Below, piece after piece: positions 6,142 to 57,221 of a DNA stretch of 64,000 nucleotides. How positions within the stretch are numbered: the first letter of the stretch is position 1; each line of letters starts with the position of its first letter. Where the stretch lies: the NCBI GenBank assembly GCA_018817085.1, contig JAHIUT010000038.1, positions 9,441 through 73,440 of the forward strand, in the 5' to 3' direction. A program made the position numbers and the translations under genes. Source of the DNA: Patescibacteria group bacterium. Lineage in GTDB: Bacteria > Patescibacteriota > WWE3 > CG2-30-40-12. Under the pieces are notes generated by a model. That model searched no databases and was not told the origin of the DNA. It saw only the letters and a program-made list of their open reading frames with translations.

Positions 6142-6177
6142 GTATATCTACTCCCCCTAAAATTTAGTGACTATTAA

Positions 6178-6262
6178 ACTGTGCAAAATGGAGTCGGTAA
6201 CTCCAAAAAACTATGTAAAATGGAGTTGACAACTCCAAAAAACTATGTAAAATGGAGTTATG
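6178..6262 (+). repeat. About 2.6 tandem copies of a 32-bp unit (tgtaaaatggagtYGRYaactccaaaaaacta), each carrying a GGAGT..ACTCC palindrome, directly abutting the start codon of the AAA ATPase gene
   Basis: Read directly from the sequence: gtgcaaaatggagtcggtaactccaaaaaactatgtaaaatggagttgacaactccaaaaaactatgtaaaatggagtt. The middle unit contains the perfect 15-bp palindrome GGAGTTGACAACTCC. Confidence 0.8.
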
Positions 6263-7396
6263 TATTCCAGATTAATAACGCCTCCAAAAGATAAAAGCTT
6301 CTTTTTGTTTGGTCCTCGCGGAACCGGAAAAACAACTTGGGTAAGAGCCACTTTTCCGAAAGCAGTATATTTAGATTTATTGGAAGCGGAGGTATTTAAC
6401 ATTTTATTAGCCAATCCGCAAAGGTTGGAGAACTATATACCAAAAAACTTTACCGATTATATTATTATTGATGAAGTACAGCGAATTCCCGAAATACTAA
6501 ACGAAGTACATCGTTTAATTGAAAAAGAACGTCTTAAATTTATCCTCACTGGTTCTAGCGCTAGAAAATTAAGAAAAGGCGGGCAGAATTTGTTAGCGGG
6601 CAGAGCGCTTACTTATTTTTTGCACCCATTAACAGCGGTGGAACTTGGTACTGATTTTAATCTTAAACAATCTTTAAATTATGGGCATCTCCCCTCTATA
6701 AATAAAGAGAAAGATCCCCAAAAATATTTGGAAAGTTATATTAAGACTTACCTTGAGGAGGAAGTTTTTCAAGAAGGACTAACAAGAAATCTTTCCGTTT
6801 TCGCCCGTTTCCTGGAAACAGCAAGTTTCTCTCAAGGGTCGATTTTAAATACATCGGAAGTAGCAAGGGAAGCGGCTATTAATAGGAAGGTGGTGGAAAA
6901 TTATTTTAAGATTCTTGAGGATTTGTTAATTGGATATCGCATCCCTGTTTTTAATAAAAGGGCGAAAAGGAGACTTCTTGCTCATTCTAAATTCTATTTT
7001 TTTGATGTGGGTGTTTATAAGGTATTGCGTCCGATGGGTCCTTTGGATATGCCTGAAATGGTAGAAGGTATGTCTTACGAGAGCTTGTTTTTTCAGGACA
7101 TCCTTGCTATTAACAGCAGTTTGAATTTAGGGTATAAGCTTTTTTATTACCGAACCGTAACAGGAATAGAAGTTGATTTTGTAATGTATGGAGAAAAGGG
7201 AATTCGCGCTTTTGAAATTAAAAGAACCAACAAAATTTCCTCTGATTTAACTAAGGGTCTAAAATATTTCTCTAAGGAATATCCTCAATCAAAAAGTTTT
7301 CTTATCTATGGAGGAAAAAGAAAAATGAGCGAAGGCAATATTGAAATATTGCCAATTGAATACGCTCTTAAAAACCTTCCCGAGTTGCTTATTTAA
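6260..7396 (+). CDS. AAA+ ATPase (AAA_14/DUF4143 family, uncharacterised)
   Basis: Walker A FLFGPRGTGKTT and Walker B IIIDEVQRIP. Domain architecture and length (378 aa) are typical of the DUF4143 ATPase family. Confidence 0.7.
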   Translation: MYSRLITPPKDKSFFLFGPRGTGKTTWVRATFPKAVYLDLLEAEVFNILLANPQRLENYIPKNFTDYIIIDEVQRIPEILNEVHRLIEKERLKFILTGSSARKLRKGGQNLLAGRALTYFLHPLTAVELGTDFNLKQSLNYGHLPSINKEKDPQKYLESYIKTYLEEEVFQEGLTRNLSVFARFLETASFSQGSILNTSEVAREAAINRKVVENYFKILEDLLIGYRIPVFNKRAKRRLLAHSKFYFFDVGVYKVLRPMGPLDMPEMVEGMSYESLFFQDILAINSSLNLGYKLFYYRTVTGIEVDFVMYGEKGIRAFEIKRTNKISSDLTKGLKYFSKEYPQSKSFLIYGGKRKMSEGNIEILPIEYALKNLPELLI

Positions 7397-10271: not shown

Positions 10272-11114
10272 TTGTTTAAACAGATGAAAAACTCACAAAA
10301 AGGTTTTATCGTGCCATTACTTCTCGTGATTATTGCGGTGTTGGTAGTCGGAGGCGGTGTTTATATTTACGAAAATAAAAAGATAGAAGCACCTGTTGTC
10401 ATTGATACTGAAACAGAGTCATCAAATCAAGATCAGCAAAAGACAGATACGAAAACTCCCAGCCAAACTCCAACCCCTTCTCCAATCCAACCTTCAACTA
10501 AAAACCCTACATTAAGTAATAATTGTGAAAATTTAGTTACTTACAGTGCAAAAGCATATCAAGATGGCTGGGAAAAAACATTCAAGAAAGAAAATAATCT
10601 TTCCGACTCAGAATTTAATGCTTATATTACTGTTAGTTCTGTATCATTGAGACCACTAGGACTTACTTGTGAATTAGAGATAAGATATGCAGTAAAGAAA
10701 GATTGGTTGCTAGTGAATCAAATAGACAGCATGACGCTTGGTGTTCCGCCAACTATTTCGCCTAGCAATCTTCCTCTTGAGAGCGACCCAACACAATCTG
10801 GACGAATAGGAGTATCAACAGTAAATCTTCACGACTCGTTGTCTTTCAAGAGCCAAACCCAAGCCCTTAACTATTATGTAAGTGCGTATAATCTGAAAGG
10901 TACTGGTGCCAAAATTCAGCAACAAGGTTTCCAAAATTTCTGGAATAAAGAAAGTGCAGAAAAATCCGGTTATCCTTTCGCTGGCGAAGGTGGCGAAGCA
11001 TTTATATCGGTGTCAGGTACTATCAACCAAAGTCAAAACAAATGCTATCGTGGCGAGTTGTCTCTTGTAACCAAGGAAACAACATACCATGATATGCCAT
11101 GTTGGATTAACTAA
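10272..11114 (+). CDS. Membrane-anchored/secreted hypothetical protein with Thr/Pro-rich linker
   Basis: N-terminal TM/signal anchor (FIVPLLLVIIAVLVVGGGVYIY) followed by a TPSQTPTPSPIQPST linker and then a ~200-aa domain. There are 4 nt between the XRE stop and its start. Confidence 0.5.
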   Translation: MFKQMKNSQKGFIVPLLLVIIAVLVVGGGVYIYENKKIEAPVVIDTETESSNQDQQKTDTKTPSQTPTPSPIQPSTKNPTLSNNCENLVTYSAKAYQDGWEKTFKKENNLSDSEFNAYITVSSVSLRPLGLTCELEIRYAVKKDWLLVNQIDSMTLGVPPTISPSNLPLESDPTQSGRIGVSTVNLHDSLSFKSQTQALNYYVSAYNLKGTGAKIQQQGFQNFWNKESAEKSGYPFAGEGGEAFISVSGTINQSQNKCYRGELSLVTKETTYHDMPCWIN

Positions 11115-11150
11115 GGAAAAACTTTAAGTTTTTCCTGATTCAAGGGAGCA

Positions 11151-11196
11151 ATCCCCGCCGTTTTATAATGTCTCCTAAAAACGGCGGGGATTTGTG
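11151..11196 (+). terminator. Rho-independent terminator-like hairpin after the 10272..11114 gene
   Basis: atccccgccgttttataatgtctcctaaaaacggcggggattt: an 11-bp GC-rich stem followed by TTT. Confidence 0.5.
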
Positions 11197-11446
11197 CGCG
11201 CACAGGGCGGGCGGGGCAAGCACATATAGATTTGTTTGTGCCTAGCACAATCCATATTTTGAGTTACCACTACCAGTCATCGAAGCCACAGAGTTTAGAG
11301 CCACCACAGAACGCCGAGAGGAAGCGCCTCGTATCGCCGTGAGGACGGAGAAATGAACAACTCCAAAGAACCATAAATGATATAATACAAATGTTCATTT
11401 TGTAGTCTGAAACGGCGAAGCAAAACCAAAAATTTCCTTTTCTTAT

Positions 11447-16482: not shown

Positions 16483-17331
16483 ATGGACGATATAACGACA
16501 ACAATATTGCTTGGCGACTCGCAAGAAGTGTTGGAAACCTTGAGCGAAGACTCAATTGATTTGATTATAACCTCCCCACCGTATGCCGATAGACGAAAAA
16601 ATACTTATGGGGGTATAGCGCCAAAAAAATATGTTGAATGGTTTTTGCCAATAAGTGAACAATTACTGCGGGTTTTGAAACCAACAGGAACATTTATTTT
16701 GAACATTAAAGAAAAGGCGGAAAACGGGGAGCGCACTACTTATGTTCTTGAACTTATTTTGGCTTTACGAAAACAGGGTTGGTTGTGGACAGAGGAATTT
16801 ATTTGGCATAAAAAAAATTGCTATCCGGGTAAGTGGCCAAATCGTTTTCGCGACGCGTGGGAACGAATGCTCCAGTTTAATAAGACCCGAGATTTCAATA
16901 TGTATCAAGAAGCGGTTATGGTGCCAATTGGTGATTGGGCGAATGGGCGGCTGAAAAATTTAAGCGAAATTGATAAAATACGGGACGATTCTAAAAGTGG
17001 TAGTGGGTTTGGCAAGAACATATCCAACTGGTTAAAGCGAAGCATGGTATATCCGACCAATGTTTTACAATTTGCTACTGTTTGCAATAACAAAAAGCAC
17101 AGCGCTGCTTTTCCAGAAGAATTGCCGGAATGGTTCATTAAACTTTTTACTCAAGAAAACGATTGGATTTTAGATCCATTTTTGGGATCTGGTACAACAT
17201 CGGAGGTAGCGCAAAGGATGAGACGCAACTCAATAGGCATTGAAATAATACCTGAGTATGTAGAGATGTTCAAAGAAAAAATAACTCAAAAAGAACCATC
17301 TTTAATTAGTCATAATAAAATTATCGTATGA
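16483..17331 (+). CDS. DNA methyltransferase, beta-class (motif IV SPPY precedes motif I FxGxG), N4-cytosine or N6-adenine specific
   Basis: DLIITSPPYADRR (motif IV, the SPPY form typical of N4C-MTases) near the N-terminus and ILDPFLGSGTT (motif I) near the C-terminus. Confidence 0.8.
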   Translation: MDDITTTILLGDSQEVLETLSEDSIDLIITSPPYADRRKNTYGGIAPKKYVEWFLPISEQLLRVLKPTGTFILNIKEKAENGERTTYVLELILALRKQGWLWTEEFIWHKKNCYPGKWPNRFRDAWERMLQFNKTRDFNMYQEAVMVPIGDWANGRLKNLSEIDKIRDDSKSGSGFGKNISNWLKRSMVYPTNVLQFATVCNNKKHSAAFPEELPEWFIKLFTQENDWILDPFLGSGTTSEVAQRMRRNSIGIEIIPEYVEMFKEKITQKEPSLISHNKIIV

Positions 17332-18071
17332 AAGAATTAGATTTGCAACAAATTTATGAATATGTAGAAAAACACATCTCAATCTTTCATCAGAGGAGAT
17401 TGGATTATGTGCAAAATAGGGTCGACCTGCTCAAAATTTTGAAGCAGAAAAATCCTTATCTTTTCAAAGCCAAAAATATCCTTACCGCACAAGATTTGAT
17501 TAAGGGGTTTTTGGACGCTTTTTTACAATCACAAGAGGAAACTTTATTTGGGGATTTTATTGAAGGGTTGGCGATTTTTGTTTGTGATAAAGTATTTGGC
17601 GCAAAAAAATCAGAATTGACGGGTGTTGATTTGGAATTTGAGAAAAATGGAACTATATATATTGTTGAAATTAAAGCTGGTTGGAATTGGGGTAATTCAA
17701 GTCAAATCAGACAACTACGGATCAATTTCGAAACCGCGAAAAAAGCAATACGGGTCAAAACTAGTAAAGAAATAGTTGCAATTAATGGATGTTGCTTTGG
17801 CAGAGACAACAAACCAGATAAAGGTGATTATTTAAAACTGTGCGGGCAACGCTTCTGGGAATTTATTTCTGGGAGCAAGGAATTATACATAAACATTATT
17901 GAGCCTATTGGGTATGAAGCAAAAGAAAAAAATGAAGAATTTATGGAAAATTACGCTTGTATTATAAATAAACTTACGCTTGAATTTTCACAGCAATTTT
18001 GTGATGATGGGAAAATTAATTGGGCAAAATTGGTAGAGTATAATTCGGGTTTTGAGAAAATAAAAGTATGA
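17328..18071 (+). CDS. Putative Type II restriction endonuclease (PD-(D/E)xK) cognate to the upstream MTase
   Basis: ATGA start/stop overlap with the MTase. Candidate catalytic core is GVDLEFEKNGTIYIVEIKAG (D...E-x-K). No other family is recognised. Confidence 0.5.
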   Translation: MKELDLQQIYEYVEKHISIFHQRRLDYVQNRVDLLKILKQKNPYLFKAKNILTAQDLIKGFLDAFLQSQEETLFGDFIEGLAIFVCDKVFGAKKSELTGVDLEFEKNGTIYIVEIKAGWNWGNSSQIRQLRINFETAKKAIRVKTSKEIVAINGCCFGRDNKPDKGDYLKLCGQRFWEFISGSKELYINIIEPIGYEAKEKNEEFMENYACIINKLTLEFSQQFCDDGKINWAKLVEYNSGFEKIKV

Positions 18072-25360: not shown

Positions 25361-25597
25361 ATGAAAGAGTACATTACTACAGTAACTCAAAAAGGGCAGG
25401 TTACCATTCCTAAAATTTTAAGGGACGCTGTTGGAATTGAAACATATAAAAAAGTTTCTGTTAAGTCCAAAGGTAAATATATTTTTATTTACCCTAATAA
25501 AGATATATTGGATATTGCGGGAAAAATTAAAACGCAAAATAAAAAACCCGCGTTATTGGCAAGGGAATATTTAGAGAAAGGATATGAAAGAAATTAA
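25361..25597 (+). CDS. vapB: AbrB/SpoVT-domain antitoxin (VapB-like)
   Basis: TVTQKGQVTIPKILRDAVGIE is a swapped-hairpin AbrB motif. It lies immediately upstream of, and overlaps by 14 nt with, a PIN-domain gene. Confidence 0.6.
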   Translation: MKEYITTVTQKGQVTIPKILRDAVGIETYKKVSVKSKGKYIFIYPNKDILDIAGKIKTQNKKPALLAREYLEKGYERN

Positions 25598-26027
25598 TAC
25601 ATACTTTATTGACACCAATGTTTTTTTAAGAACCCTTATAAAGGAAGATAAGAACACTTTTAATGATTGTTTAGCCTTTTTTGAGAAAGTTAAAAACAAC
25701 AAATGCAAAGCGGTGACGGCAAGTATTGTTATTGCGGAGGTTGTATGGACGCTTTTATCTTTTTACAAAGTTTCCAAATCCGAAGTGATTATGGCGGTTA
25801 ATTCAATTAAAAATATGCGGGGGTTATCCATCATAGACGGTTATGATATAAAAACCGCTTTACAACTATTTGAGGATAACAATGTAAAATTTATTGATTG
25901 TATGATAGCGTCCACAAAAAGTGTTTCTAAAGACAAAATAACAATAGTTTCGTTTGACAAGGATTTTGATAAATTAGGAATTGCCAGAAAAGAACCGAAA
26001 CAGATAGCTTCTGTTTTATCTCTATAA
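25584..26027 (+). CDS. vapC: PIN-domain ribonuclease toxin (VapC-like)
   Basis: YFIDTNVFLRTL (first acidic residue) plus downstream D/E residues (IIDGYD; FDKDFDKLG). 147 aa. Confidence 0.7.
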   Translation: MKEINTYFIDTNVFLRTLIKEDKNTFNDCLAFFEKVKNNKCKAVTASIVIAEVVWTLLSFYKVSKSEVIMAVNSIKNMRGLSIIDGYDIKTALQLFEDNNVKFIDCMIASTKSVSKDKITIVSFDKDFDKLGIARKEPKQIASVLSL

Positions 26028-26113: not shown

Positions 26114-27181
26114 TTAATTGCAAACTACATAATGTAAATATTCGATTGTTTTGTTTGCTGTGTAGTCTCTATTTTCTGACTTATCGGCTTTAAACCTGTT
26201 ATATTCTTTCGTAAAATTTCCATATTTGCCCCGCAGGCTCATTATTTCCTTAATATCGTCCAAAGTCATCAAACCCTCGTTGTTATAGCTCAAAAAAATG
26301 TATTTTGCTTTTACCTTTAAAATCAAATCTTCAAATGTTTTTTTAACTTGGGGTACCGAACAGTAAAGCGATTTTTGATTTTGGTAGCTACGCAATCCTG
26401 TTTTTCCGTGAATTTCGGGATTGTCATATCTTGCAATAGTTTCGAGCAGGTGATAATTTGTAGCATATTGTCTATGATTATAGGGAGGGTCCAAATACAC
26501 AATGTCCCCGTTAACTTTTTCAGCCACAATATTTACATCCTCATTAAAAACCTTGTGTTTTCTGTCATTGATTATTAGTTCAGCTGGTTTCAAAACCAAA
26601 GTATTTTGAGCAGTCCTCTTTAGTTTTTTTAGGAAGGCCCCGTAAACAGAAGCTGTGTTTGCGTGTTTATCCACTGACTCCACCAAACTTGCAATCAAAA
26701 AATAGTATTCGTTTTCGGAAATCCGCTTTTCTTTTTTCCAGTTTTCAATTTTTTGGCGGATGTCATCACACAACATTCCGTTTTTATCAGAGAAATATTG
26801 CCGTTGCTCTTTTTCATCTTTTGTCCCTCCAAGGCAGTAATTTTTGTAAATAAATCCTTTCTTGCCTTTTAAGAGTGAAAGATAATCACAAACAAATCTT
26901 TTCCGATTCTTTATTTCAATATTTTTTAATTCGGGAATTTTCTTTCCGAGTTTTGAAAAAAACAACTCTTTGTGATTGCCGATGTAGTGTCTATTTAAAA
27001 CATAACTGTAATATTGAATGTCATTTGCGATTATTTTATAACCCCTTTTCTTGAAATAACTTCCAACGATTCCTGTTCCCGCAAACAGGTCACAAAAAGT
27101 AGCACAGTTTTTATCTACTACTTTGTTTATTGAATCTTCCAAAAATTCTAACAATGATAATTTACTGCCGATATAATTCAT
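26114..27181 (-). CDS. Dam-family (D12/alpha-class) N6-adenine DNA methyltransferase
   Basis: Motif X/I region MNYIGSKLSLL...FAGTGIV and motif IV VYLDPPYNHRQY. The order X-I...IV is the Dam/DpnM/MboIA architecture. Confidence 0.8.
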   Translation of the reverse strand: MNYIGSKLSLLEFLEDSINKVVDKNCATFCDLFAGTGIVGSYFKKRGYKIIANDIQYYSYVLNRHYIGNHKELFFSKLGKKIPELKNIEIKNRKRFVCDYLSLLKGKKGFIYKNYCLGGTKDEKEQRQYFSDKNGMLCDDIRQKIENWKKEKRISENEYYFLIASLVESVDKHANTASVYGAFLKKLKRTAQNTLVLKPAELIINDRKHKVFNEDVNIVAEKVNGDIVYLDPPYNHRQYATNYHLLETIARYDNPEIHGKTGLRSYQNQKSLYCSVPQVKKTFEDLILKVKAKYIFLSYNNEGLMTLDDIKEIMSLRGKYGNFTKEYNRFKADKSENRDYTANKTIEYLHYVVCN

Positions 27182-27185
27182 AATT

Positions 27186-28085
27186 TTAATTATGCAATAA
27201 GATTACAAAGCAAGGTGCTTTGTAATTTTTCTCGCCTTGAATTTTATGCTTATAAGCAAAATTGATTTCAAGTGGATTATCTAAATCGGTTTTATTTATA
27301 ATCTTTCTTATTTTCTCAATTGAAACATCCTCGTCAATATAAACAACTAGTAATCTTGGGTCGGCTCCAAATCTACCCTCGTCTTGATGTTTGTAAAGAT
27401 ATTCCGCAACAAGCTCCGGTTTGTTAATTGCTGTTTCGCGCCATTTATCTTTGAAATGTCTTTTGAACTCGTCGGTTGGACTTTTTGCAACCTTTTGATC
27501 AAAAGAAATTCCATTGATGAAAAAATCCACACCTCGCCTATGATTCAATGTCGGCAAAATATTGCTATTTTTTTCGAAAATCAATGTTTCTATAAAATCA
27601 TTTCTAACAGTGTTGATTTCCTTTATTCGTCTATATTTTACAGCGGCGACTCTTACTTTTTCATCTTTAACAAATCCATTTTCTTTCTCAGAATTCACTC
27701 TTTGCACAAAGTCATCAAAAGCTCCTTGCGAAAAAGGCCACGCAATATAGCCCAATTTCAATGATCTCCATTCCTTAATAAGCACATCCATTGCGCTGTC
27801 GGCCTCTTTCCCGCTTTTATATTTTTCAGTCTCTTTAAAAATACTCCTGATTACTTTTTTGCTTGCCTCATAATTCCAGCTATCAACAACGGCTTTCCAA
27901 AGTTCCTTTGTATCTAAATCCAAAACCTTTTTACCAGCATTCTGTCCTCGACTAATAGTTCTAAATTTTAGAGAGGGTACCTGTTTTATATAATTTAAGC
28001 GCAATAAATATTCCGTTGCCTTTTCTTGGCTACCAATAATTTTGTGCGCCAAATCCTCTGATAATTTTGATTTAATGTATTCCAT
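27186..28085 (-). CDS. Putative restriction endonuclease/effector of unit A (uncharacterised family; homologous to 30257..31354)
   Basis: Candidate PD-(D/E)xK core GVDFFINGISFDQKV. It aligns by eye with the 30257..31354 protein (VDFFIGDIPFDLKV; LVAEYLYKHQDEGRFGADPRLLVVYIDED versus LIKWLYEKQGERRFDAANRLFLVLIDKNN). Tight operon with MTases on both sides. Confidence 0.45.
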   Translation of the reverse strand: MEYIKSKLSEDLAHKIIGSQEKATEYLLRLNYIKQVPSLKFRTISRGQNAGKKVLDLDTKELWKAVVDSWNYEASKKVIRSIFKETEKYKSGKEADSAMDVLIKEWRSLKLGYIAWPFSQGAFDDFVQRVNSEKENGFVKDEKVRVAAVKYRRIKEINTVRNDFIETLIFEKNSNILPTLNHRRGVDFFINGISFDQKVAKSPTDEFKRHFKDKWRETAINKPELVAEYLYKHQDEGRFGADPRLLVVYIDEDVSIEKIRKIINKTDLDNPLEINFAYKHKIQGEKNYKAPCFVILLHN

Positions 28086-28087
28086 AA

Positions 28088-28870
28088 TTATTTTTTGAAA
28101 ATTAAAATATACTCGTGCTTAAAAATATAATAATCGCTGGATAATGCTCTATATCTCCATATTGCCTCTTTATTTTGTTTAGCTCTATTACCGCTCATAT
28201 TTTTAATTATAATACTTTTTAGCGTAAGCCCCAACTTTTTAGCTTCATCTAAGCAATAAAATCCTAATGGGACCCATTTACTTTGTGTATATTTATCACC
28301 AATAACGATTGCCAAATACCTGTCGTCATCTAAAATTTCAATGGTGTTTTTCAAAACCAGTGAAAACTTTTCTAAGAACTCTTTAAGTGATTTGGCATTT
28401 GATAGATCATCTTTCAAGTTGCTAAATTTAATAATATCAGCATAGGGGGGGTGCAAAATTGCTAATTGCACCTTTGTCCTTTGCTTTTTATTTAATACTT
28501 GGGCTATGCCAAAAAAAGTATTTTTGTCAGCACTATCTCCAGAAATAAGTTCTGCAAAGTAACTTTTGTTATCTACCTTGTTTTTAATGTGATTTATAAG
28601 TTCCGGTTGGATATCAACACCAACAAAATTTCTGCCCAAACTTTCGGCCTCATACGCGGTCGTTCCACTTCCGACAAATGGATCAAAAACAACATCGTTT
28701 TTCTTTGTGTACCGTAAAATTAATTGACGAGGAATTTGCGGGACAAAATTGCCATGATAAAAGCCGTCGTGTTTTCCTGATTTATCTCGTTCCGGTATAA
28801 TCCATAAACTATCCGTCCAAATTTCGGTATTTTTCCAATCCGCTAAATTTATATCATTGAAGTTTGGCAT
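28088..28870 (-). CDS. DNA methyltransferase (motif I DPFVGSGTT then motif IV HPPYAD), second MTase of unit A
   Basis: FDPFVGSGTTAYEAESLG followed by LAILHPPYADIIKF. 3-nt spacing to the downstream gene. Confidence 0.75.
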   Translation of the reverse strand: MPNFNDINLADWKNTEIWTDSLWIIPERDKSGKHDGFYHGNFVPQIPRQLILRYTKKNDVVFDPFVGSGTTAYEAESLGRNFVGVDIQPELINHIKNKVDNKSYFAELISGDSADKNTFFGIAQVLNKKQRTKVQLAILHPPYADIIKFSNLKDDLSNAKSLKEFLEKFSLVLKNTIEILDDDRYLAIVIGDKYTQSKWVPLGFYCLDEAKKLGLTLKSIIIKNMSGNRAKQNKEAIWRYRALSSDYYIFKHEYILIFKK

Positions 28871-29049
28871 GATTTTTTTATTAAATCCTCAACAATTCCA
28901 TTTAATTTCAAACTCGCCTTTTCCATGTGCGGGGAAATTTTAACGCCTTAATCTTTGTAAATTATACCATTTATTTGTGGGGGGAGTTGAAGTTTCATAC
29001 ATAGTGGGCTGACCCCAAAATATTAAAATGCATAAAGGAATATCCTCCT

Positions 29050-29077
29050 TTGCCCTTCGATTCTGGCTCGCCTTCGC
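29050..29077 (+). repeat. 28-bp perfect direct repeat, copy A (TTGCCCTTCGATTCTGGCTCGCCTTCGC)
   Basis: Identical 28-mer at 32489..32516. A short CCTCCT is also shared just upstream of both copies. Confidence 0.9.
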
Positions 29078-29115
29078 CGCCGCAATTTTTCGTGCCAACA
29101 AAGTTGGCGCGCCGC

Positions 29116-30273
29116 CTAAATCTTACTGAATTCTATCAAACTTTTTCGGTATATTTCAAATATCTTTGGAATTGTATCTATGTTTATCCATTCGTTTGGT
29201 GCGTGAACATTATTACTATCCACGCCGAAAGCGTTAATGATCGGGATATTAAGTTTACTGATAACATTTCCTATGCTTCCTTGACCGCTCGCGACAAGCG
29301 AAATTTCTTGGTCTAAAACTTCGCTTGCAGTATTTTTCAAAATTTGTACGAAAGAATTTTTGGAATCGGTTAGATATGCCTGTTCATGCTGTAAAATTTC
29401 TAAATTATGCTGGACTTTTAACTCATCCAGCTTTGCTTTTATTATGTCCAAAACTTCGTCTTTTGTTTGCGACGGAAGTAAACGAATATCTATATTTGCT
29501 TCGCACTTATCCGGCACAATATTGATTGCCACCCCGCCGTTGATTTGAGAAATATTGAGCGATGAGCCAAATTCAAAAAACGGTTCCGTTTTTTGGTCAA
29601 GATTTAGAGAAGTTATTACATTGATAACTTTACCCATTGCATGAATTGCGTTTATTCCTTTATTCGTTCTGCTTCCTGTGTGTGCCGATTTGCCAAGAAT
29701 AGTAATTTTGATTCGTAGCCAACCACGAGCACCGATTGAGATTTCATTTATTCCTTGATAGCCGAGAATACAAGTATCGGCTTTCGGTGCATGTTTAATA
29801 ACTTCTTTAACTCCAGTAAAATTTCCTGTTTGTTCATCTGCGTCAAAGCCAAGAAAAAACGAGGCATTAAAATTTTTATCTTCGGACAGTTCTTTTACGA
29901 GATGACAAAATAAAGCGATTGCAATTTTTGAATCTGCCGTGCCTCGGCCATACATTTTGTTGTCGATGATTTTTGCCTCAAAAGGCGGATGTTCCCATTT
30001 TTCGACATCGCCAGCCGGAACAGTATCCAAACAACTTTCAAGCCAAATTGTTTTAGATGGGTTTTCTTTTTTAATATGACAGATAACAGACGGGTGCTCT
30101 TTTGGTCCAATAATTTCGGGCTTAAAACCAAAACTTTTCAGCTTGTCAAAAACCAAATTAGCAATGCCGCTTTCCGAATCAATAAAATTCTGCGACGGCA
30201 TCGCAACCAATTTTTGCGTAAATTCAATAATTTGTTTAGTAATATTATCCATATTTTTAATCTTTAACGACAA
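29116..30273 (-). CDS. M20-family metallopeptidase (ArgE/DapE-like deacylase)
   Basis: GRGTADSK metal-binding motif and HxD-type region (HAPNEW). 385 aa, typical M20 two-domain size. Confidence 0.65.
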   Translation of the reverse strand: MSLKIKNMDNITKQIIEFTQKLVAMPSQNFIDSESGIANLVFDKLKSFGFKPEIIGPKEHPSVICHIKKENPSKTIWLESCLDTVPAGDVEKWEHPPFEAKIIDNKMYGRGTADSKIAIALFCHLVKELSEDKNFNASFFLGFDADEQTGNFTGVKEVIKHAPKADTCILGYQGINEISIGARGWLRIKITILGKSAHTGSRTNKGINAIHAMGKVINVITSLNLDQKTEPFFEFGSSLNISQINGGVAINIVPDKCEANIDIRLLPSQTKDEVLDIIKAKLDELKVQHNLEILQHEQAYLTDSKNSFVQILKNTASEVLDQEISLVASGQGSIGNVISKLNIPIINAFGVDSNNVHAPNEWINIDTIPKIFEIYRKSLIEFSKI

Positions 30274-31354
30274 AAATTACATCGGAAAGAGCGGTGTATC
30301 TTTTTCCGTCTATCCAGTCAAATTCTATTTTTAACTTCTCGGCTTCCTTGCCGTTGAATCTATCAAGATATCCGCTGATAGTATTTTTTAATATATCCAG
30401 ATTTCTTTTCATTTTCCAGCTTTCCTCAAGATTATTCTTATCAATAAGCACCAAGAACAAGCGATTTGCCGCGTCAAAACGTCGTTCTCCCTGCTTCTCA
30501 TAAAGCCACTTTATGAGTTTCTGCGGTTCTTTGATAACTCTTTGAATCATTGACCACCTCGTTTTCCTAAATTCCGCAATGAAGTTTTTCACTTCTGGTT
30601 TTTGACTCTCTTCAACTCGTGCCAGTAATTCCGCAAACAGGGCTTTGTTTTTCTGTTCTCGGTTATATTTAATGCCGAGCGTTTTTACAAAGCGTTTCAA
30701 AACCTGTAATTCGGTGGGTAAGCCGTCCGCTTTCCTACTTGCCGTCATAAACCCGTCGGGGAAATAGGTAACCTTCAAATCAAATGGAATATCGCCAATG
30801 AAAAAATCAACTTTTTTGATCAGCCCTACTGTTGGAGTAACTTTTTTATGATCCTTGAAAATGTCTTCAATCAAAATTGAAGTCCAGTGGTTGTACCAAG
30901 ACGATTGGACATAACCGCGCATGCTGTCGTGTATTTCATTCTCGATCTTTTCATTGAGCATATCAAAGCTACGAATTTTCTTGATATAGTTGTCAACTAT
31001 AGTTCTTTCGAGGTTGTTTTGATACAAGCCGCCCCAATCAAAAACTTTCATTTTGTAAAGCTCGGAAACAAGAGCGGTTTCATTCGCCTTTCTCCCCGAT
31101 CTTTCGGCGAGGTGCTTTTGAGCTATAAATTTATCGAGTAGCTCCTCTGATGGTTTTGCTTCGTAAACATGCTCAAAAAGTGCTGTGCCTCTAACATTTG
31201 AACAGTCAATTTTCGCGAGCATGCGAAATTCAACCAAAAGATCTTTCCTTGAAATTGAGCGAAGTTTGAGCCAATAAATACTGCCCTCTTCTTTTAGAAG
31301 AACATCAAATTTATTATCCTGATAAAGTTGTTTGAAATGTTTAAATTTATTCAT
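30257..31354 (-). CDS. Putative restriction endonuclease/effector of unit B (paralog of 27186..28085)
   Basis: KVDFFIGDIPFDLKV and the ...RRFDAANRLFLVLIDKNN... block are shared with the unit A protein. Start chosen at MNKFKHF (31354), which overlaps the Dam-like MTase stop by 8 nt. Longer in-frame alternatives extend to 31429. Confidence 0.45.
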   Translation of the reverse strand: MNKFKHFKQLYQDNKFDVLLKEEGSIYWLKLRSISRKDLLVEFRMLAKIDCSNVRGTALFEHVYEAKPSEELLDKFIAQKHLAERSGRKANETALVSELYKMKVFDWGGLYQNNLERTIVDNYIKKIRSFDMLNEKIENEIHDSMRGYVQSSWYNHWTSILIEDIFKDHKKVTPTVGLIKKVDFFIGDIPFDLKVTYFPDGFMTASRKADGLPTELQVLKRFVKTLGIKYNREQKNKALFAELLARVEESQKPEVKNFIAEFRKTRWSMIQRVIKEPQKLIKWLYEKQGERRFDAANRLFLVLIDKNNLEESWKMKRNLDILKNTISGYLDRFNGKEAEKLKIEFDWIDGKRYTALSDVIFVVKD

Positions 31355-32417
31355 AGCAATAAAATAAATATTCTTTTGTTCCTTTTTTTGAGCCCTTACC
31401 ACCATAATGATTTTGATATTCGTGCTCAAAAACTTTTACCTTTTTGTGCTGACTAATCAAATCAACAATAGTCTCTTTTCCGGGATAGCTTTCGCTGTTG
31501 TAAGAAATAAGCCAAAAAGGAATATGTGCGCTTACGGAAAAAAGTTTTTTGAAAGAATCGATAGTTTCTTCTTTGCGTACAAAACCGCTTTCTTTTTTAG
31601 GAAAATACTGTTTTGTTCCATTGATAAATTCCTTGTCTTTCCAATATTCCACAAAGGTTTCTAGAAAATGATAAAAGGCCTGATAATCTGGGTGGCAACC
31701 GTAATAAGGCGGGTCAAAATAAACCAAATCGATATTTTTCAGTTTTGGGATTAGTTGGATTGTATCTTCGCAGTAAACTTCGTTGTCTTTTTCGTTATCA
31801 AAAACTGCATTATTATATTCCGGAACCAATTCGAGAAATAAATCTTTAAGAGGGCGGGCTATAGTAGGATTCCTTTTCACTCGTAGCGGGTCTTTGCTGT
31901 AACGCAAAGCACTTAAATGAGCAAAGTGTCCGAGTAAAATTTTTCTGGTTAAAGACCTGCTCATTGTCGCGAGAGCAAGTGATTTTTTATACTCGTTATC
32001 AAGCAAATTGATATTTGATCTGAAATTATCAAGAAAACGAGCTTGATCTCGTTCAAAGAAAACATCAGTAAAAGTATCTTCGATAAGAGAGTCTGACTTT
32101 TTATTTTGTGAAAAGAGCAAGTCAATATCGTTGTCGTTAAGAGTAATGTCCTTATTTTCAATGAGTGCCTTGCCAATATGAAAATTGAATTTTAAGAAAT
32201 CATTTACAATAACTTTTTTACCTTTGTTCTTAAAATAGTAACCAACAACCGAAGTGCCGCTGAATGCATCCAAAAAACTCTCTATTTCTTTTGGGGCATT
32301 TTCAAAAATCCATCTTACTAAACGCTCTTTACTGCCAAGATATTGTGTCTTCGGCAATTTGTGCGATTTAATCGTTTCCCCGAATAATGTTGTTTGTGCT
32401 TGTTGTGATAAAAGCAT
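31347..32417 (-). CDS. Dam-family N6-adenine DNA methyltransferase, second copy (diverged from the 26114..27181 copy)
   Basis: TQYLGSKERLV (Y-x-GSK motif), DAFSGTSVVG, and LVYFDPPYYGCHPDY (DPPY). Confidence 0.75.
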   Translation of the reverse strand: MLLSQQAQTTLFGETIKSHKLPKTQYLGSKERLVRWIFENAPKEIESFLDAFSGTSVVGYYFKNKGKKVIVNDFLKFNFHIGKALIENKDITLNDNDIDLLFSQNKKSDSLIEDTFTDVFFERDQARFLDNFRSNINLLDNEYKKSLALATMSRSLTRKILLGHFAHLSALRYSKDPLRVKRNPTIARPLKDLFLELVPEYNNAVFDNEKDNEVYCEDTIQLIPKLKNIDLVYFDPPYYGCHPDYQAFYHFLETFVEYWKDKEFINGTKQYFPKKESGFVRKEETIDSFKKLFSVSAHIPFWLISYNSESYPGKETIVDLISQHKKVKVFEHEYQNHYGGKGSKKGTKEYLFYCYE

Positions 32418-32488
32418 TACTGATAGTATACCATTTTTTAATTTTCCCCTAATTCTGAACGGTCCTCCTACGCTCGTTAAAACTTCTT

Positions 32489-32516
32489 GCCCTTCGATTC
32501 TGGCTCGCCTTCGCTC
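32489..32516 (+). repeat. 28-bp perfect direct repeat, copy B (TTGCCCTTCGATTCTGGCTCGCCTTCGC)
   Basis: Identical to 29050..29077. It lies between the Dam-MTase-2 start and the 3' end of tRNA-Pro. Confidence 0.9.
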
Positions 32517-32574
32517 GCCATTCTCTCAGGACATAAGAATTTCTAACCCTTCGTTCCTCAGGGAGAAATTCTAA

Positions 32575-32648
32575 TGTCGGGGACCGCGGAGTTGAACCGC
32601 GAATTTCTGCGTCCCGAACGCAGCGCCATGCCATTAGACCAGTCCCCG
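32575..32648 (-). tRNA. tRNA-Pro (anticodon CGG)
   Basis: Reverse complement: CGGGGACTGGTCTAATGGCATGGCGCTGCGTTCGGGACGCAGAAATTCGCGGTTCAACTCCGCGGTCCCCGACA. It has a 7-bp acceptor stem, anticodon arm CTGCG-TTCGGGA-CGCAG (as in E. coli proK) and T-arm CGCGG-TTCAACT-CCGCG. The D-arm is atypical (3-bp stem with a G-T pair). No encoded CCA. Confidence 0.7.
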
Positions 32649-54607: not shown

Positions 54608-55580
54608 AATTAAATTGCCACATTGGAAATTTTTGACCGTCGTTTTGCTATTTTTAACGGCTTTTGCGGTTTTGTATTCTTTGGGGGTGAAAAGAGCCAA
54701 CCGCTACGACTTGGGAAAAGAATCTTTTAAAGAGGTTGTTATAAACAAAGGAGCTTCAGTGGAAGAGATTTCAAAAATATTGGTTAGAGAAGACTTAATA
54801 AACTCGCGCGCTTTATTTAAATTATATGTGTATATTAGTAATAAAAGTCTTCAGGCGGGGAATTTTTATGTTCCCACGAACATAAGTGTGGTGGAGTTGG
54901 CTAATCTTTTGGGTAAAGGGAGTTTTCAGAAAAAATACACTTTTTTAGAAGGTTGGCGCGTGGAGCAGATGGCAGAGCTTTTGCCTAAAGATGTCCAAAA
55001 CGAGTTTCTTAAAAGCTCTTACACTAAAGAAGGGTTTATGTTTCCCGACACCTACTTTTTTCTGGAAAGCGCAATTGGGGAGGAAATTGCCCAAACTTTA
55101 AGCCAGACTTTTGAAGATAAAATAAAAGTTTTTGACAAGGAAATCAAGGCAAGTTCCCTTTCTTTGGAGGAGATTGTTATTTTAGCATCTATAATTGAAA
55201 GAGAAGCTAAAAGTTTTGATGAGAAGGCGACAATTGCTGGGATTTTGGTAAAAAGGTACCAAAACGGATGGCCTTTGCAGGCGGACGCTACTATTCAGTA
55301 CGCCAAGGATTTAAACGCCTTTACTTGCGCATCTTTATCCGACTGTGTTTGGTGGCGTCCGCTATTTGCCACAGATTTGGATATAGAGTCCTCTTATAAT
55401 ACATACAAATATGCGGGGTTACCTCCAACACCGATATGCAGTCCCGGACTGGAATCTATAAGGGCGGTTTTGGAGTATAAAGAAACCCCATATTGGTTTT
55501 ATTTAACGGGAAACGATGGGGTAACGCGCTTTTCCGAGACGGTAGAAGAGCAAACGGCTAATATACAAAAGTATTTGTAG
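54588..55580 (+). CDS. mltG: Endolytic murein transglycosylase MltG (YceG family)
   Basis: N-terminal TM and YceG-like domain (KKYTFLEGWRVEQMAELL; FMFPDTYFF; ASIIEREA). The 3' end lies inside direct repeat R1. Confidence 0.8.
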   Translation: MKPMKIKIKLPHWKFLTVVLLFLTAFAVLYSLGVKRANRYDLGKESFKEVVINKGASVEEISKILVREDLINSRALFKLYVYISNKSLQAGNFYVPTNISVVELANLLGKGSFQKKYTFLEGWRVEQMAELLPKDVQNEFLKSSYTKEGFMFPDTYFFLESAIGEEIAQTLSQTFEDKIKVFDKEIKASSLSLEEIVILASIIEREAKSFDEKATIAGILVKRYQNGWPLQADATIQYAKDLNAFTCASLSDCVWWRPLFATDLDIESSYNTYKYAGLPPTPICSPGLESIRAVLEYKETPYWFYLTGNDGVTRFSETVEEQTANIQKYL

Positions 55581-55638
55581 AACGATAGAAGCGTTTGTTT
55601 TTAGGGGGTCGTATCCCTATGAAATTGGATTTGTCGAT

Positions 55639-56448
55639 TCATTCTAATGGACTTTTGACATTTTTAAGTTTGGGATTAGTTACTTGCGTATAAAGTTGAG
55701 TAGTTCTAATGTTTTGATGTCCTAATAATTCTTGCACATACCGCACATCGACGCCATTTTCCAAAAGGTGGGTAGCAAAGCTATGGCGCAGACTATGAAA
55801 AGTGGCATCTTTTTTAACGCCAGATTTTTTAAAGGAATTTTCAAAAACTTTTTGAGCGGTTCTTGTGGTCAGTTTTCCACCCCGCTCACTTGAAAACACA
55901 AAATCGTTTTTTTCTTTGCCGGCAATAAGGTTTTGAATATCTGCTGATAACTTCTCTGGAAAAACACTAATTCTGTCCTTTTTGCCTTTTGCCTGCTTAA
56001 TATGAATGGTCAATTCATGAAAATCAATGTCTTGCGCTTTTAGGCTTATTGCTTCACTAACGCGTAATCCAGCGCCATAAGCAAGCGATAGAAGTAATTT
56101 ATGCTTCGTGTTTTCGGTTGCTTCAAGGATTTTTTCTATTTCACTCCTTGAAAGCACTACGGGAAGGCTTTTATTTTTCTTAGCTGATCGAATTTCTATT
56201 TTCTCATTTGTGATGTTGCGATAGTAGAATTTAACCGCATTCAGAAGCAGGTTTCTTGTTTCTGCCGATACGCCTTTCTTTTCGCAAAACAGTAGAAAGT
56301 CTTTGATGTTATCTCTATCCAATATTTCAAGATTATCCTTTTTATAAACAAAATATTCCTTGAGTCCGTAAAGGTAACTTTTTATGGTTTTGCTACTGTA
56401 ATTGCGGATTTTTAATTCCCGTTCTGTTTGCCCTAATTGTTGTTGCAT
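55639..56448 (-). CDS. Tyrosine-type site-specific recombinase/integrase (XerC/D-like)
   Basis: C-terminal catalytic motifs HSLRHSFATHLLENGVDVRYVQELLGHQNIRTTQLYTQV (R..H..Y). N-terminal SAM-like core-binding domain. 269 aa. Confidence 0.8.
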   Translation of the reverse strand: MQQQLGQTERELKIRNYSSKTIKSYLYGLKEYFVYKKDNLEILDRDNIKDFLLFCEKKGVSAETRNLLLNAVKFYYRNITNEKIEIRSAKKNKSLPVVLSRSEIEKILEATENTKHKLLLSLAYGAGLRVSEAISLKAQDIDFHELTIHIKQAKGKKDRISVFPEKLSADIQNLIAGKEKNDFVFSSERGGKLTTRTAQKVFENSFKKSGVKKDATFHSLRHSFATHLLENGVDVRYVQELLGHQNIRTTQLYTQVTNPKLKNVKSPLE

Positions 56449-56469
56449 AATTGTTTTATTTTGGTAAAA

Positions 56470-57016: not shown

Positions 57017-57221
57017 AATAAAAGATGGACAGCGCATAACACGGGCTATACGGAAAATTTAAAACAATTTTCCCAAATCCTGCTAAAATCGGAGCAGGAC
57101 TTCGTATAGCCCGAAACGTTGTTCGAAATAATGTGGTAACGCATTTTTCCGAGACGATAGAGGAGCAAACGGCTAATATACAAAAGTATTTGTGAGAAAA
57201 AAGAGTTGCCAAAAAGGGACT

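Follow-up and report, generated by a model that had tools for sequence, protein, structure and literature searches.

The two copies of a 28-bp direct repeat that flank a 3.4-kb cassette beside a tRNA-Pro gene in a WWE3 (Patescibacteria) bacterium with a small genome are best read as marking a recombination seam, not a duplicated promoter or a duplicated host target. Sequence comparison identifies the 28-mer as a segment of a GC-rich, hairpin-bearing "cassette-end" element of Patescibacteria. The same comparison identifies methylase-2, a putative restriction enzyme, an M20 hydrolase, and the first part of the element (module 1) as a single horizontally acquired unit.

The repeat and its setting

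We searched the whole stretch of DNA under analysis (64 kb, here called the window) and found that the 28-mer TTGCCCTTCGATTCTGGCTCGCCTTCGC occurs exactly twice on the same strand, at 29050-29077 and 32487-32514, with a copy-to-copy spacing of 3437 bp. The preliminary description had reported perfect 28-bp direct repeats at this locus, and our search bears this out: the match is exact, sharp-edged, and beyond chance. Its coordinates for copy 1 (29050-29077) were correct, while those for copy 2 (32489-32516) were displaced by 2 nt. Comparison of the flanks showed that identity between the copies breaks off sharply at both ends, leaving exactly 28 bp. No third copy was present in the 64-kb window even when three mismatches were allowed, 0 of 100 dinucleotide-preserving shuffles yielded any 28-mer match, and the chance expectation for exact 28-mer pairs is ∼3e-8. 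Both junctions were reproduced in independent assemblies: L017, which differs from the window at 1 of 14,330 positions, spans M20, copy 1, and unit 1, and L002 spans methylase-2, copy 2, tRNA-Pro, and UvrD. Every gene at the cassette locus lies on the minus strand, and the features, in their reading direction, are as follows.

32576..32648, minus strand: tRNA-Pro(CGG), called by ARAGORN and Rfam; conserved anchor of the variable island.
32515..32575, minus strand: spacer A, from tRNA-Pro to copy 2, with an imperfect palindrome at 32531-32575.
32487..32514, minus strand: 28-mer copy 2, exact match; apparently a solo fragment, between tRNA-Pro and methylase-2, without module 1.
32418..32486, minus strand: spacer D, from copy 2 to methylase-2; contains TGGTATACT (32425-32433), an extended -10 box 7 nt ahead of the ATG.
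31347..32417, minus strand: D12-class (Dam-like) N6-adenine DNA methyltransferase 2 (methylase-2), 356 aa; Pfam MethyltransfD12, PADLOC MTase_II.
30257..31354, minus strand: "effector 2," putative restriction endonuclease by context only, 365 aa; its start overlaps the methylase stop.
29116..30252, minus strand: M20/ArgE-DapE-type metallohydrolase, 378 aa; Pfam Peptidase_M20 and M20_dimer, NCBIfam ArgE/DapE subfamily.
29078..29115, minus strand: module 1 of the cassette-end element, beginning right after the M20 stop with GGCGGCGC, then hairpin H1 (29094-29108, GCCAAC/GTTGGC), then ACGAAAAATTGCGGCG.
29050..29077, minus strand: 28-mer copy 1, exact match, minus-strand reading GCGAAGGCGAGCCAGAATCGAAGGGCAA; distal (spacer) part of the GC-rich cassette-end element after M20.
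28871..29049, minus strand: spacer B, from copy 1 to R-M unit 1; contains TGGTATAAT (28961-28969), also an extended -10 box.
26114..28870, minus strand: R-M unit 1, comprising an N6_N4 methylase (28088-28870), effector 1 (27186-28085), and D12 methylase 1 (26114-27181); Pfam and PADLOC.

Measured on the minus strand, the distances first reported for the M20 stop, the tRNA, and the gene starts all hold. Copy 1 lies 38 nt from the M20 stop codon (29116-29118) and 179 nt from the next methylase ATG (28870; R-M unit 1), and copy 2 lies 61 nt from the tRNA-Pro 3' end (32576) and 69 nt from the methylase-2 ATG (32417). The position of the -10 box 7 nt before that ATG suggests that the transcript may be leaderless. 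The sequence TGGTATAMT occurs 4 times in the window versus 0.88 expected, and two of the four occurrences precede the two R-M operons. R-M unit 1, downstream of copy 1, is not a duplicate of unit 2.

The 28-mer itself holds two direct 11-nt half-sites that are identical at 7/11 positions. A promoter scan gave no prediction overlapping it. Rfam searches of both intergenic regions and four element-bearing loci returned only tRNAs above threshold and, in E-value mode, nothing credible. Against tRNA-Pro, on either strand, the best local alignment comprised only 8-12 matched bases with mismatches, and this absence of similarity ruled out the 28-mer as a tRNA fragment. The 22-nt core had zero matches in the JGI metagenome and viral collections and a single chance match, in a GC-rich coding region, among species-representative genomes. 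With two copies 3437 bp apart, the arrangement also differs from the short, regular repeat-spacer units of a CRISPR array. The flanks of copy 2 are unrelated to those of copy 1 and to every fetched locus; among these loci, spacer D had no homologue. RNA folding of the spacer A strand gave z = -4.0, with a structure not common to copy 1. Another assembly (L003) folds back on itself at the spacer A palindrome.

The cassette-end element and the acquired block

In many Patescibacteria contigs, a laterally mobile M20 gene has the element immediately past its stop codon. The element is made up of module 1 (GGCGGCGC, a covarying hairpin, and ACGAAA..GCGGCGGCG), a GAA-GCGAG spacer, and further hairpins. 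Module 1 is kept after M20 in L022-L025, L029, L031, L032, L039, L040, and L041, and the pairing of the H1 stem is preserved through compensatory changes, most stems being GCCAGC/GCTGGC or GCCAGT/ACTGGC. In the window, the same parts (GGCGGCGC, hairpin, ACGAAA..GCGGCGG) occupy 29115..29078, immediately behind the M20 stop. The family HMM detects a single copy in 64 kb of genome, at 29121..29060 (E = 6e-11); copy 2 by itself is too short for detection by this model. At 12 other M20 loci, homology to the window runs on beyond the stop codon and breaks off at 29067-29123, either within copy 1 or shortly before it; where DNA homology to other M20 loci reaches into copy 1, its end points are 29067-29075. 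At a minimum, then, the first 11-18 nt of the 28-mer belong to a conserved element that travels with M20 in other organisms.

The window departs from the element family after GCGAAGGCGAG(CCAGAAT). The module 2 hairpin (GGGCGGGCAAAAA...TTTTTGCCCGCCC) that follows the spacer elsewhere is absent, neither flank B nor flank D raises the HMM score or extends the match to the family, and the similarity of spacer B to the family's tail is not significant. Immediately before copy 2, AGAATGGCGAGC looks like one more degenerate GAA-GCGAG unit. The variant CCAGAATCGAAGGGCAA, carried by both window copies, was found in no other family member, and the two copies therefore arose very recently from a common source in this genome.

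Elsewhere, inverted copies of the element lie upstream of the small HTH genes that begin cassettes (L022, L024, L032, and L040, the last with an inverted module 1 copy at 1-40 that is 95% identical). The overall cassette architecture is IR-L, HTH (XRE-type), cargo, M20, IR-R. An inverted copy also lies right after tRNA-Pro in the WWE3 relatives L005-L011. Upstream of methylase-2, the window has neither an inverted copy nor an XRE-type HTH gene; spacer D, the direct 28-mer, and spacer A stand there instead. Some M20 genes followed by the element have no R-M system in their vicinity, and in one relic (L039) only the last ∼30 codons of M20 and the element are left. M20 cassettes adjoin tRNA genes at five other loci: Ser, Glu, Gly, Asn, and, in L041, a convergent tRNA-like sequence read by eye.

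The bracketed DNA consists of the 69-nt promoter spacer and a single laterally shared block (D12 methylase, putative restriction enzyme, M20 hydrolase), of which methylase-2 is the first gene and M20 the last. From 32417 to 29075, the window is co-linear with the unrelated metagenome contig L040, at 90.9% identity over 3343 bp (methylase, 94.5%; REase, 89.5%; M20, 89.4%). The methylase-REase pair alone shows 75-84% DNA identity in other contexts, M20 homologues 80-90% identical stand on many short contigs in varied contexts, and REase-2 homologues 82-93% identical occur in MAGs labelled Nomurabacteria and Peregrinibacteria. Host UvrD is merely 56-61% identical outside the closest WWE3 relatives. 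Effector 2 had zero matches in Pfam, NCBIfam, PADLOC, and PDB; its homologues in other genomes always adjoin a D12 methylase, its motif VDFFIGDIPFDLKV (D-x9-D-x-K) is also found in effector 1, and its AlphaFold model is confident (pLDDT, 86) with no clear solved relative. DNA homology to L020, L021, and L040 begins exactly at the methylase-2 ATG (32417). The proposal that the repeats form the cassette boundary was thus partly right: they lie at the edges of laterally acquired DNA, but they do not bracket it exactly, since one end of the block is the methylase-2 ATG, 69 nt inward from copy 2, and the other falls within copy 1.

Recent recombination at the block is visible in the sister assembly L002, which carries a mosaic methylase-2 allele: 52 of its 54 differences from the window fall within methylase-2, and the rightmost (32406) lies 11 nt from that gene's ATG (32417). 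In several assemblies, contigs break off within or beside the element, or else at the edge of the block (L004, L017, L018, L022, L025, L040, and L043-45).

The block lies in a hypervariable island. In relatives, the interval from rmuC to tRNA-Pro has entirely different gene content, and it is on this ground that we call it hypervariable; tRNA-Pro itself holds the same relation to uvrD in L005-L013. In the window, the rmuC-uvrD interval encodes MazE, PIN, three methylases, two effector proteins, and M20. Different genes, and no 28-mer, are found in the nearest relatives (UvrD, 81-85% identical), and all same-strain contigs carry the cassette. The suggestion of an acquired module beside a tRNA in an integration hot spot is therefore upheld, as close relatives carry completely different genes. 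Among the relatives, none had an empty site (tRNA-Pro, A, 28-mer, B, unit 1), the nearest being too rearranged to serve, and none combined a single unit with a single repeat copy. The search for a circular cassette junction likewise returned none. Contigs L017 and L002 together cover 18 to 44.6 kb of the window, a region that encodes no recombinase, and none turned up in the further ORFs inspected ahead of 55.6 kb. The window's single recombinase gene, for a tyrosine recombinase (Phage_integrase), is at 55639-56448, 23 kb from the cassette, and has its own, unrelated 69-bp att repeats.

Origin of the two copies

We give an even chance to one particular history, in which a single recombination at the element segment produced the site-cassette-site arrangement, with copy 1 as the end of the acquired unit and copy 2 as a solo element fragment. 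A circular (or tandem) intermediate of the cassette would have recombined once, reciprocally, at its element segment with a resident copy downstream of tRNA-Pro, through a recombinase acting in trans or through short-homology recombination. The 28 bp would represent the shared crossover core, comparable to attL/attR or to the sites flanking integron cassettes, and as direct repeats the copies could also delete the cassette again. In favor of this history we count the exact, sharp-edged repeat, the co-linear match to L040, the wider spread of the methylase-REase pair and of REase-2 homologues, the M20 homology that runs on into the element, the family HMM hit, the covariation in H1, the inverted copies at HTH genes and at tRNA-Pro, the different gene content of relatives from rmuC to tRNA-Pro, the mosaic allele in L002, the contig ends at the element or block edge, and the tyrosine recombinase gene 23 kb away. 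Several observations weigh against it: neither an empty site nor a circular junction appeared among the relatives examined, no recombinase is near and the window's only one has unrelated att repeats, flanks D and B add no match to the element family, the family's architecture elsewhere has inverted rather than direct repeats, and copy 2 alone falls below the detection length of the family HMM.

Rather unlikely, in our judgment, is an account in which the copies are independent leftovers of repeated cassette swaps, truncations, and replacements at the tRNA-Pro hot spot, copy 2 being the end stump of an earlier cassette, copy 1 the end of the present one, and the direct repeat a by-product with no role in insertion. 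Turnover at the locus is indeed rapid, and in relatives the element adjoins this same tRNA-Pro; relics such as L039 occur elsewhere, the degenerate motif unit before copy 2 is what a real element fragment would be expected to have, and the allelic mosaicism of L002 shows ordinary homologous replacement at the block. However, independently decaying copies should not stay 28/28 identical with both edges sharp, the private variant CCAGAATCGAAGGGCAA points to a very recent common origin of the two, and the observed edges would need at least two separate deletion end points. It is improbable that the 28-mer is instead a regulatory site (an operator or upstream activating site), kept identical by one protein controlling both R-M operons. 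Both copies do stand in the same orientation upstream of the operons' extended -10 promoters, and the 28-mer holds the two direct half-sites, yet the distance to the -10 box varies (53 nt for copy 2 versus 80 nt for copy 1), so that the geometry is not fixed, and nothing in the promoter scan overlapped the repeat. Moreover, the 28-mer is missing from the block's closest relative, L040, and from other homologous R-M units; in its stead, L040 and L021 have an HTH controller gene upstream. The element of which the 28-mer is part is also found behind M20 genes that have no neighboring R-M system.

Direct repeats flanking acquired DNA beside a tRNA, together with the M20 cassettes adjoining tRNAs at five other loci, recall a classical tRNA-targeted island, in which an integrase inserted the cassette at tRNA-Pro and duplicated the host attachment site. 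We consider this very improbable: the 28-mer has no similarity to tRNA-Pro and lies 61 nt beyond it, no integrase is encoded in or near the island, and the repeated sequence belongs to the incoming element rather than to conserved host DNA, relatives lacking the 28-mer. The duplicated host target offered as one option in the preliminary description is accordingly unsupported, at least 11-18 nt of the 28-mer belonging to the element that travels with M20. Its other option, a tandem duplication of the R-M unit that carried a promoter region along, is refuted, although two tandem R-M operons are indeed each preceded by a 28-mer. Methylases 1 and 2 share 23% identity, the effectors can hardly be aligned and have only two short motifs in common, gene order differs (M-R-M versus M-R-hydrolase), and identity is confined to 28 bp. 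We attach next to no credence to this explanation or to chance or an assembly artefact: virtually no such pair is expected at random, both junctions recur in independent assemblies, and rmuC...uvrD synteny supports the join.

Comparison with known systems

Furuta, Abe and Kobayashi 2010 (PMC2853133) described R-M units with direct repeats and no linked mobility gene as "insertion with long target duplication." Like those units, the present locus has R and M in an insert of <20 kb (here 3.4 kb), direct repeats, and no transposase or integrase, with the REase assigned by context only. Unlike them, its repeat is 28 bp, below their criterion of >30 bp for a target duplication (one 22-bp case in that study likewise had no clean empty site), part of the repeat is DNA of an element that moves along with the cargo, and the repeats bracket R-M, M20, and a promoter spacer rather than the R-M unit itself. 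The same study (PMC2853133) also describes transposon-like R-M units with long inverted repeats. L040 resembles these, with HTH, M, R, and M20 between inverted GC-rich element copies, and L022, L024, and L032 share this architecture with other cargo; the short target duplications and outer ends of such cassettes are not definable, as the contigs break inside the element. The window differs in lacking the left inverted copy and the HTH gene, with the direct 28-bp fragment in their place.

With the tRNA islands of tyrosine recombinases (attL/attR), the locus shares acquired DNA beside a tRNA, a sharp-edged, identical direct-repeat core, and a hypervariable hot spot; it differs in that the repeat is not tRNA-derived, lies beyond the tRNA, and has no integrase in the island. 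The pdif/dif sites have a 28-bp XerC-6-XerD layout. Elements exploiting Xer/dif and pdif modules are thus alike in length, and they too are small modules between sites without a recombinase of their own. In the 28-mer, however, the 11-6-11 arms GCGAAGGCGAG and TCGAAGGGCAA are direct (7/11 identical) and not inverted (1/11), unlike dif. As in MITE/REP-like repeats, the element is GC-rich, forms hairpins, occupies intergenic DNA in either orientation, and often coincides with contig ends. The copies seen, though, keep to cassette ends and the neighborhood of tRNAs instead of being scattered, with one HMM copy in 64 kb.

Integron cassettes offer a further comparison. Neither intI nor attI was seen, the hairpin lacks the RYYYAAC/GTTRRRY cores of attC (AAC/GTT occurs by happenstance only in the window copy, the others having CCAGC/GCTGG), and cassettes bearing the element carry their own promoters and an HTH gene. 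Yet, as with an ORF and its 3' attC in a site-cassette-site arrangement, an element resembling a recombination site stands at the 3' end of the cargo, its structure kept while its stem sequence varies; the cassette edges are tight, almost at the ORF boundaries, and the sites are in direct orientation after insertion.

The 28-bp repeat and its surroundings

The 28-mer TTGCCCTTCGATTCTGGCTCGCCTTCGC occurs exactly twice in the 64-kb window, on the same strand, at 29050 to 29077 (copy 1) and 32487 to 32514 (copy 2). The preliminary description had reported a perfect 28-bp direct repeat, and both copies are indeed exact; its coordinates hold for copy 1 and were 2 nt off for copy 2, placed at 32489 to 32516. 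No third copy was detected in the 64-kb window at up to 3 mismatches, none of the shuffles of the window contained a match, and the chance expectation of such exact pairs is ∼3e-8. The repeat is 61% G+C versus 38% for the window. When the two intergenic regions were aligned, identity started and stopped abruptly at the edges of the 28-mer, and the flanks were unrelated. All genes from tRNA-Pro to the D12 methylase-1 gene lie on the minus strand; in this direction of transcription, the repeat reads GCGAAGGCGAGCCAGAATCGAAGGGCAA.

Features from uvrD to rmuC (window coordinates, strand, feature)
32693, +, start of uvrD/pcrA
32648-32576, -, tRNA-Pro(CGG)
32575-32515, -, spacer A, 61 nt, with palindrome
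32514-32487, -, 28-mer copy 2
32486-32418, -, spacer D, 69 nt, with extended -10 box TGGTATACT 7 nt before the ATG
32417-31347, -, D12 methylase-2
31354-30257, -, effector 2, its start overlapping the methylase-2 stop
30252-29116, -, M20/ArgE-DapE-type hydrolase, 4 nt after effector 2
29115-29078, -, GC-rich module 1, 38 nt
29077-29050, -, 28-mer copy 1
29049-28871, -, spacer B, 179 nt, with extended -10 box TGGTATAAT
28870-28088, -, N6_N4 methylase (unit 1)
28085-27186, -, effector 1 (unit 1)
27181-26114, -, D12 methylase-1 (unit 1)
25361-26027, +, MazE/PIN toxin-antitoxin pair (MazE-like), between rmuC and restriction-modification (R-M) unit 1
25282-24068, -, rmuC

All three methylases matched Type II methylase models. 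For effectors 1 and 2, searches of Pfam, NCBIfam, PADLOC and PDB sequences gave no match; they have in common the motif VDFFI..I.FD.KV (D-x9-D-x-K) and are, by context only, putative restriction endonucleases. Toxin-antitoxin pairs lie on both sides of the region: the MazE-like/PIN pair, and a HicA toxin with a neighboring 100-aa ORF downstream of mutL (∼42.1 to 42.7 kb; 10822 to 11347 in the same-strain contig L002). The window holds a third Type II R-M system, with overlapping genes, an N6_N4 methylase (16483 to 17331) and an EcoO109I-family restriction endonuclease (17328 to 18071). Elsewhere, three tandem 32-nt units of AAACTGTGCAAAATGGAGTCGGTAACTCCAAA (6176 to 6271; units 2 and 3 are 84% and 72% identical to unit 1) lie just upstream of an AAA_14/DUF4143 ATPase gene (6260 to 7396) and run into its start.

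Each 28-mer junction recurs in same-strain contigs from other assemblies. Contig L017, with 1 mismatch in 14,330, covers rmuC, unit 1, copy 1 and M20 and reaches the methylase-2 ATG; L002 (GCA_043812605.1) covers methylase-2, spacer D, copy 2, spacer A and tRNA-Pro and continues into uvrD and beyond. Joining the two contigs is supported by the rmuC-to-uvrD synteny of a relative, L013. Another contig, L003 (GCA_043824915.1), starts with an inverted duplicate of tRNA-Pro (positions 1 to 130; window 32531 to 32648) folded at the palindrome 32531 to 32575; this fold-back is an assembly artefact, not biology.

A laterally shared block in a variable locus

The closest named UvrD relatives belong to candidate division WWE3 (81% identical), with other Patescibacteria at 56 to 61%. 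In L013, where UvrD is 85% identical, the gene order is S9, rmuC, Rieske, two ORFs, tRNA-Pro, ftsJ, uvrD; in the relatives L005 to L012 (UvrD 81% identical), HTH, tRNA-Pro, DUF3800 and uvrD follow one another at the end of the order, and every contig breaks ∼2 kb upstream of uvrD. Across L005 to L013, we found no window-like R-M unit, no M20 gene, neither half of the 28-mer, and no empty site carrying one 28-mer copy without a cassette. Because these relatives differ here in gene order and content, the rmuC-tRNA-Pro-uvrD interval is a hypervariable island, which bears out the tRNA-adjacent hot spot proposed earlier.

Effector-2 homologues are 82 to 93% identical in MAGs labelled, as deposited, Nomurabacteria and Peregrinibacteria, and ∼70% identical in those labelled Saccharibacteria, Thorarchaeota and Deltaproteobacteria. 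The DNA of the methylase-effector pair is 84% and 75% identical to the window in the homologous loci L020 and L021, respectively. In both, homology begins exactly at the methylase-2 ATG (32417) and ends at the effector stop codon, and the pair is accompanied by none of promoter, 28-mer and M20. The M20 gene is mobile as well: homologues (80 to 90% identical) are found on many short contigs with varying neighbors (NYN, trypsin-like, LD-carboxypeptidase, RibD_C). Locus L040 carries HTH, methylase, effector and M20 together and is co-linear with window 32417 to 29075 at 90.9% identity over 3343 bp (methylase, 94.5%; effector, 89.5%; M20, 89.4%). The bracketed 3.4 kb thus consists of a single shared block and the 69-nt spacer D. 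Judged from these alignments, the bracketed DNA is laterally acquired. The earlier placement of the repeats at the boundary of an acquired module is thus sustained as to acquisition, but the bracketing is not exact: on the left, the block begins 69 nt inward of copy 2, and on the right it ends within copy 1.

Over 13.3 kb, L002 and the window differ at 54 positions, 52 inside methylase-2 and 2 outside. The 52 substitutions fall in two patches (31493 to 32406), the rightmost (32406) 11 nt from the ATG, and the L002 contig breaks off at the stop codon of the methylase. The L002 methylase-2 gene is a mosaic allele and, because 52 of the 54 differences lie within this gene, the block is still recombining.

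A structured element at cassette ends

At twelve M20 loci, DNA homology runs past the stop codon and ends at 29067 to 29123. Part of this conservation may be vertical, since some of the loci may come from related organisms, although their neighboring genes differ. The sequence 3' of M20 is a conserved composite element.

Parts of the cassette-end element, in order
Module 1: GGCGGCGC, hairpin H1, then CACGAAA(AA)TT(C)GCGGCGGCG
Spacer: GAA(A)GCGAG-type motifs
Long hairpin: GGGCGGGCAAAAA...TTTTTGCCCGCCC, then more hairpins

H1 stems include GCCAAC/GTTGGC, GCCAGC/GCTGGC, GCCAGT/ACTGGC, GCCCCGT/GCGGGGC and GCTAAT/ATTGGC, and a per-copy table of the stems shows that pairing is kept through compensatory changes. 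An HMM of the element family matched one copy in the window (29121..29060, E=6e-11), extending 18 nt into copy 1; beyond the match, the window leaves the consensus, with CCAGAATCGAAGGGCAA in place of the GGCGGGCAAAAA of other members. We read the 28-mer as a pair of degenerate spacer-motif units, GCGAAGGCGAGCC and AGAATCGAAGGGC, with a third such unit, AGAATGGCGAGC, preceding copy 2. Neither flank D nor flank B was significant as the native continuation of the element, whether by local alignment versus shuffles or by HMM score of reconstructed sequences. Together, these comparisons show that copy 1 is both the end of the laterally shared block and part of the cassette-end element, and that copy 2 is an isolated piece of the element, located beside the tRNA-Pro gene that anchors the hypervariable island.

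In four homologous loci (L022, L024, L032 and L040), an inverted element with H1 stem ATTTCGC/GCGAAAT or GCCAAC/GTTGGC precedes a small XRE-type HTH gene, which gives the architecture IR-L, HTH, cargo, M20, IR-R, where IR-L and IR-R are inverted copies of the element. The WWE3 relatives L005 to L011 carry IR-L and an HTH gene ∼45 nt after tRNA-Pro, this HTH being 52% identical to that of L040. M20 cassettes adjoin tRNA-Ser, -Glu, -Gly and -Asn genes, and in our reading the L041 cassette adjoins a convergent tRNA-like sequence. Contigs of many assemblies terminate inside the element, as expected of repeated or polymorphic sequence.

Three observations concern individual M20 loci. In L039 (2380 to 2572), the last ∼30 M20 codons and a GC-rich end element remain as a relic behind an unrelated ORF, which indicates that illegitimate recombination replaces the cargo of a cassette and leaves its end element in place. 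In L031, the M20 cassette is preceded by a LOOT RNA (Rfam RF03000, 73 bits; 261 to 381), which itself immediately follows tRNA-Asn. In L041 (366 to 854) and equivalently in L022 and L032, a RibD_C/DHFR-like gene (162 to 171 aa) and an XRE-type HTH gene precede M20; given these neighbors, the M20 enzyme might have a role in folate/pterin metabolism rather than act as DapE/ArgE.

Origin of the repeat and comparison with known systems

Several identities were considered for the 28-mer and rejected. Rfam found only tRNAs in the whole window at the gathering threshold, and only tRNAs and the L031 LOOT RNA in E-value mode over both intergenic regions and four element-bearing loci. The copy-2 region folds well (z=-4.0) and that of copy 1 does not (z=-0.9), which leaves no common structure. 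The plus strand has a T-loop-like TTCGATT-CTGGC, but it lacks the 5' partner of a T-stem, ARAGORN finds nothing, and the 28-mer does not match tRNA-Pro. The two arms match at 7/11 positions in direct orientation and at 1/11 when inverted, unlike a dif/Xer site, and attC core motifs are missing from most members of the element family. The 22-nt core was absent from JGI metagenome and viral contigs and had one chance match in species-representative genomes, in a GC-rich Ca. Eisenbacteria coding region. Viral contigs contained neither of two element consensus patterns, and a blastn search with the copy-1 region found no match in phage or plasmid collections.

A tandem duplication carrying a promoter, suggested in the preliminary description, is contradicted by the genes themselves: methylases 1 and 2 are 23% identical, the effectors are alignable over two short motifs only, and the gene orders differ (M-R-M in unit 1, M-R-hydrolase in unit 2). 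Set against such old divergence, a perfect 28-mer cannot be what is left of a unit duplicated together with its promoter. A regulatory role, for which the upstream position of both copies might speak, is improbable, since the copies are unequally spaced from the extended -10 boxes (53 versus 80 nt), a promoter consensus scan is empty on the 28-mer, and the repeat is absent from all homologous R-M units.

The reading we favor, with about as much to be said for it as against it, is a single reciprocal exchange at the 28-mer. An intermediate form of the cassette, circular or tandem (D, methylase, effector, M20, module 1, 28-mer), would have met an element fragment already in place (tRNA-Pro, A, 28-mer, B, unit 1), and one exchange between the element segment on the former and the fragment would yield A-28-D...module 1-28-B exactly as observed, with identity confined to the crossover core. 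Its main rival, that successive rounds of cassette turnover left both copies behind as stumps, we consider rather unlikely; were the 28-mer such debris, this would be an ordinary island boundary. The island contains no recombinase. The sole one in the window, a tyrosine recombinase (55639 to 56448, minus strand; Phage_integrase and SAM-like domains), has its own 69-bp att repeats.

With an 89-aa membrane-like ORF, this recombinase occupies a 1.6-kb mini-island (55510 to 57260) whose direct repeats (55510 to 55578 and 57125 to 57193) are 90% identical, the first forming the 3' end of yceG/mltG. A perfect palindromic GC-rich hairpin after the second repeat (57211 to 57260) is possibly the original yceG/mltG terminator. 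The mini-island resembles the classical kind of element that integrates into the 3' end of a gene.

Extending the exchange reading, the window could be a fresh site-cassette-site product of an undescribed Patescibacteria/CPR cassette family lacking a recombinase, bounded by inverted repeats, homing next to tRNA genes and moved in trans, with the 28-bp segment as its crossover site; we offer this as an unlikely proposal. The cargo of such a family would vary, for example R-M or RibD_C. Patescibacteria have tiny genomes with few recognizable mobile elements and, to our knowledge, no cultivated genetics. Defence genes nonetheless cross phyla in this group, as the methylase/nuclease pair illustrates, with protein homologues 82 to 93% identical in MAGs labelled other CPR lineages. 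A structured end element at cassette seams, tRNA genes and assembly breaks would give a handle on gene gain and loss without obvious integrases and would aid island delimitation in fragmented MAGs.

The proposed exchange would work like that at attL/attR sites of islands or at the sites flanking an integron cassette, but the arrangement belongs to neither family. Genomic islands and R-M systems are reported for Patescibacteria in a study on horizontal transfer (PMC12455944); in the passages searched by keyword, its main text contains neither "tRNA" nor "integrase", and "repeats" appears only where the name CRISPR is spelled out. R-M units with direct repeats and without mobility genes, and others with long inverted repeats, have been described (Furuta et al. 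2010, PMC2853133). Our case combines features of both classes but has a structured end element common to non-R-M cargo, in a CPR lineage.
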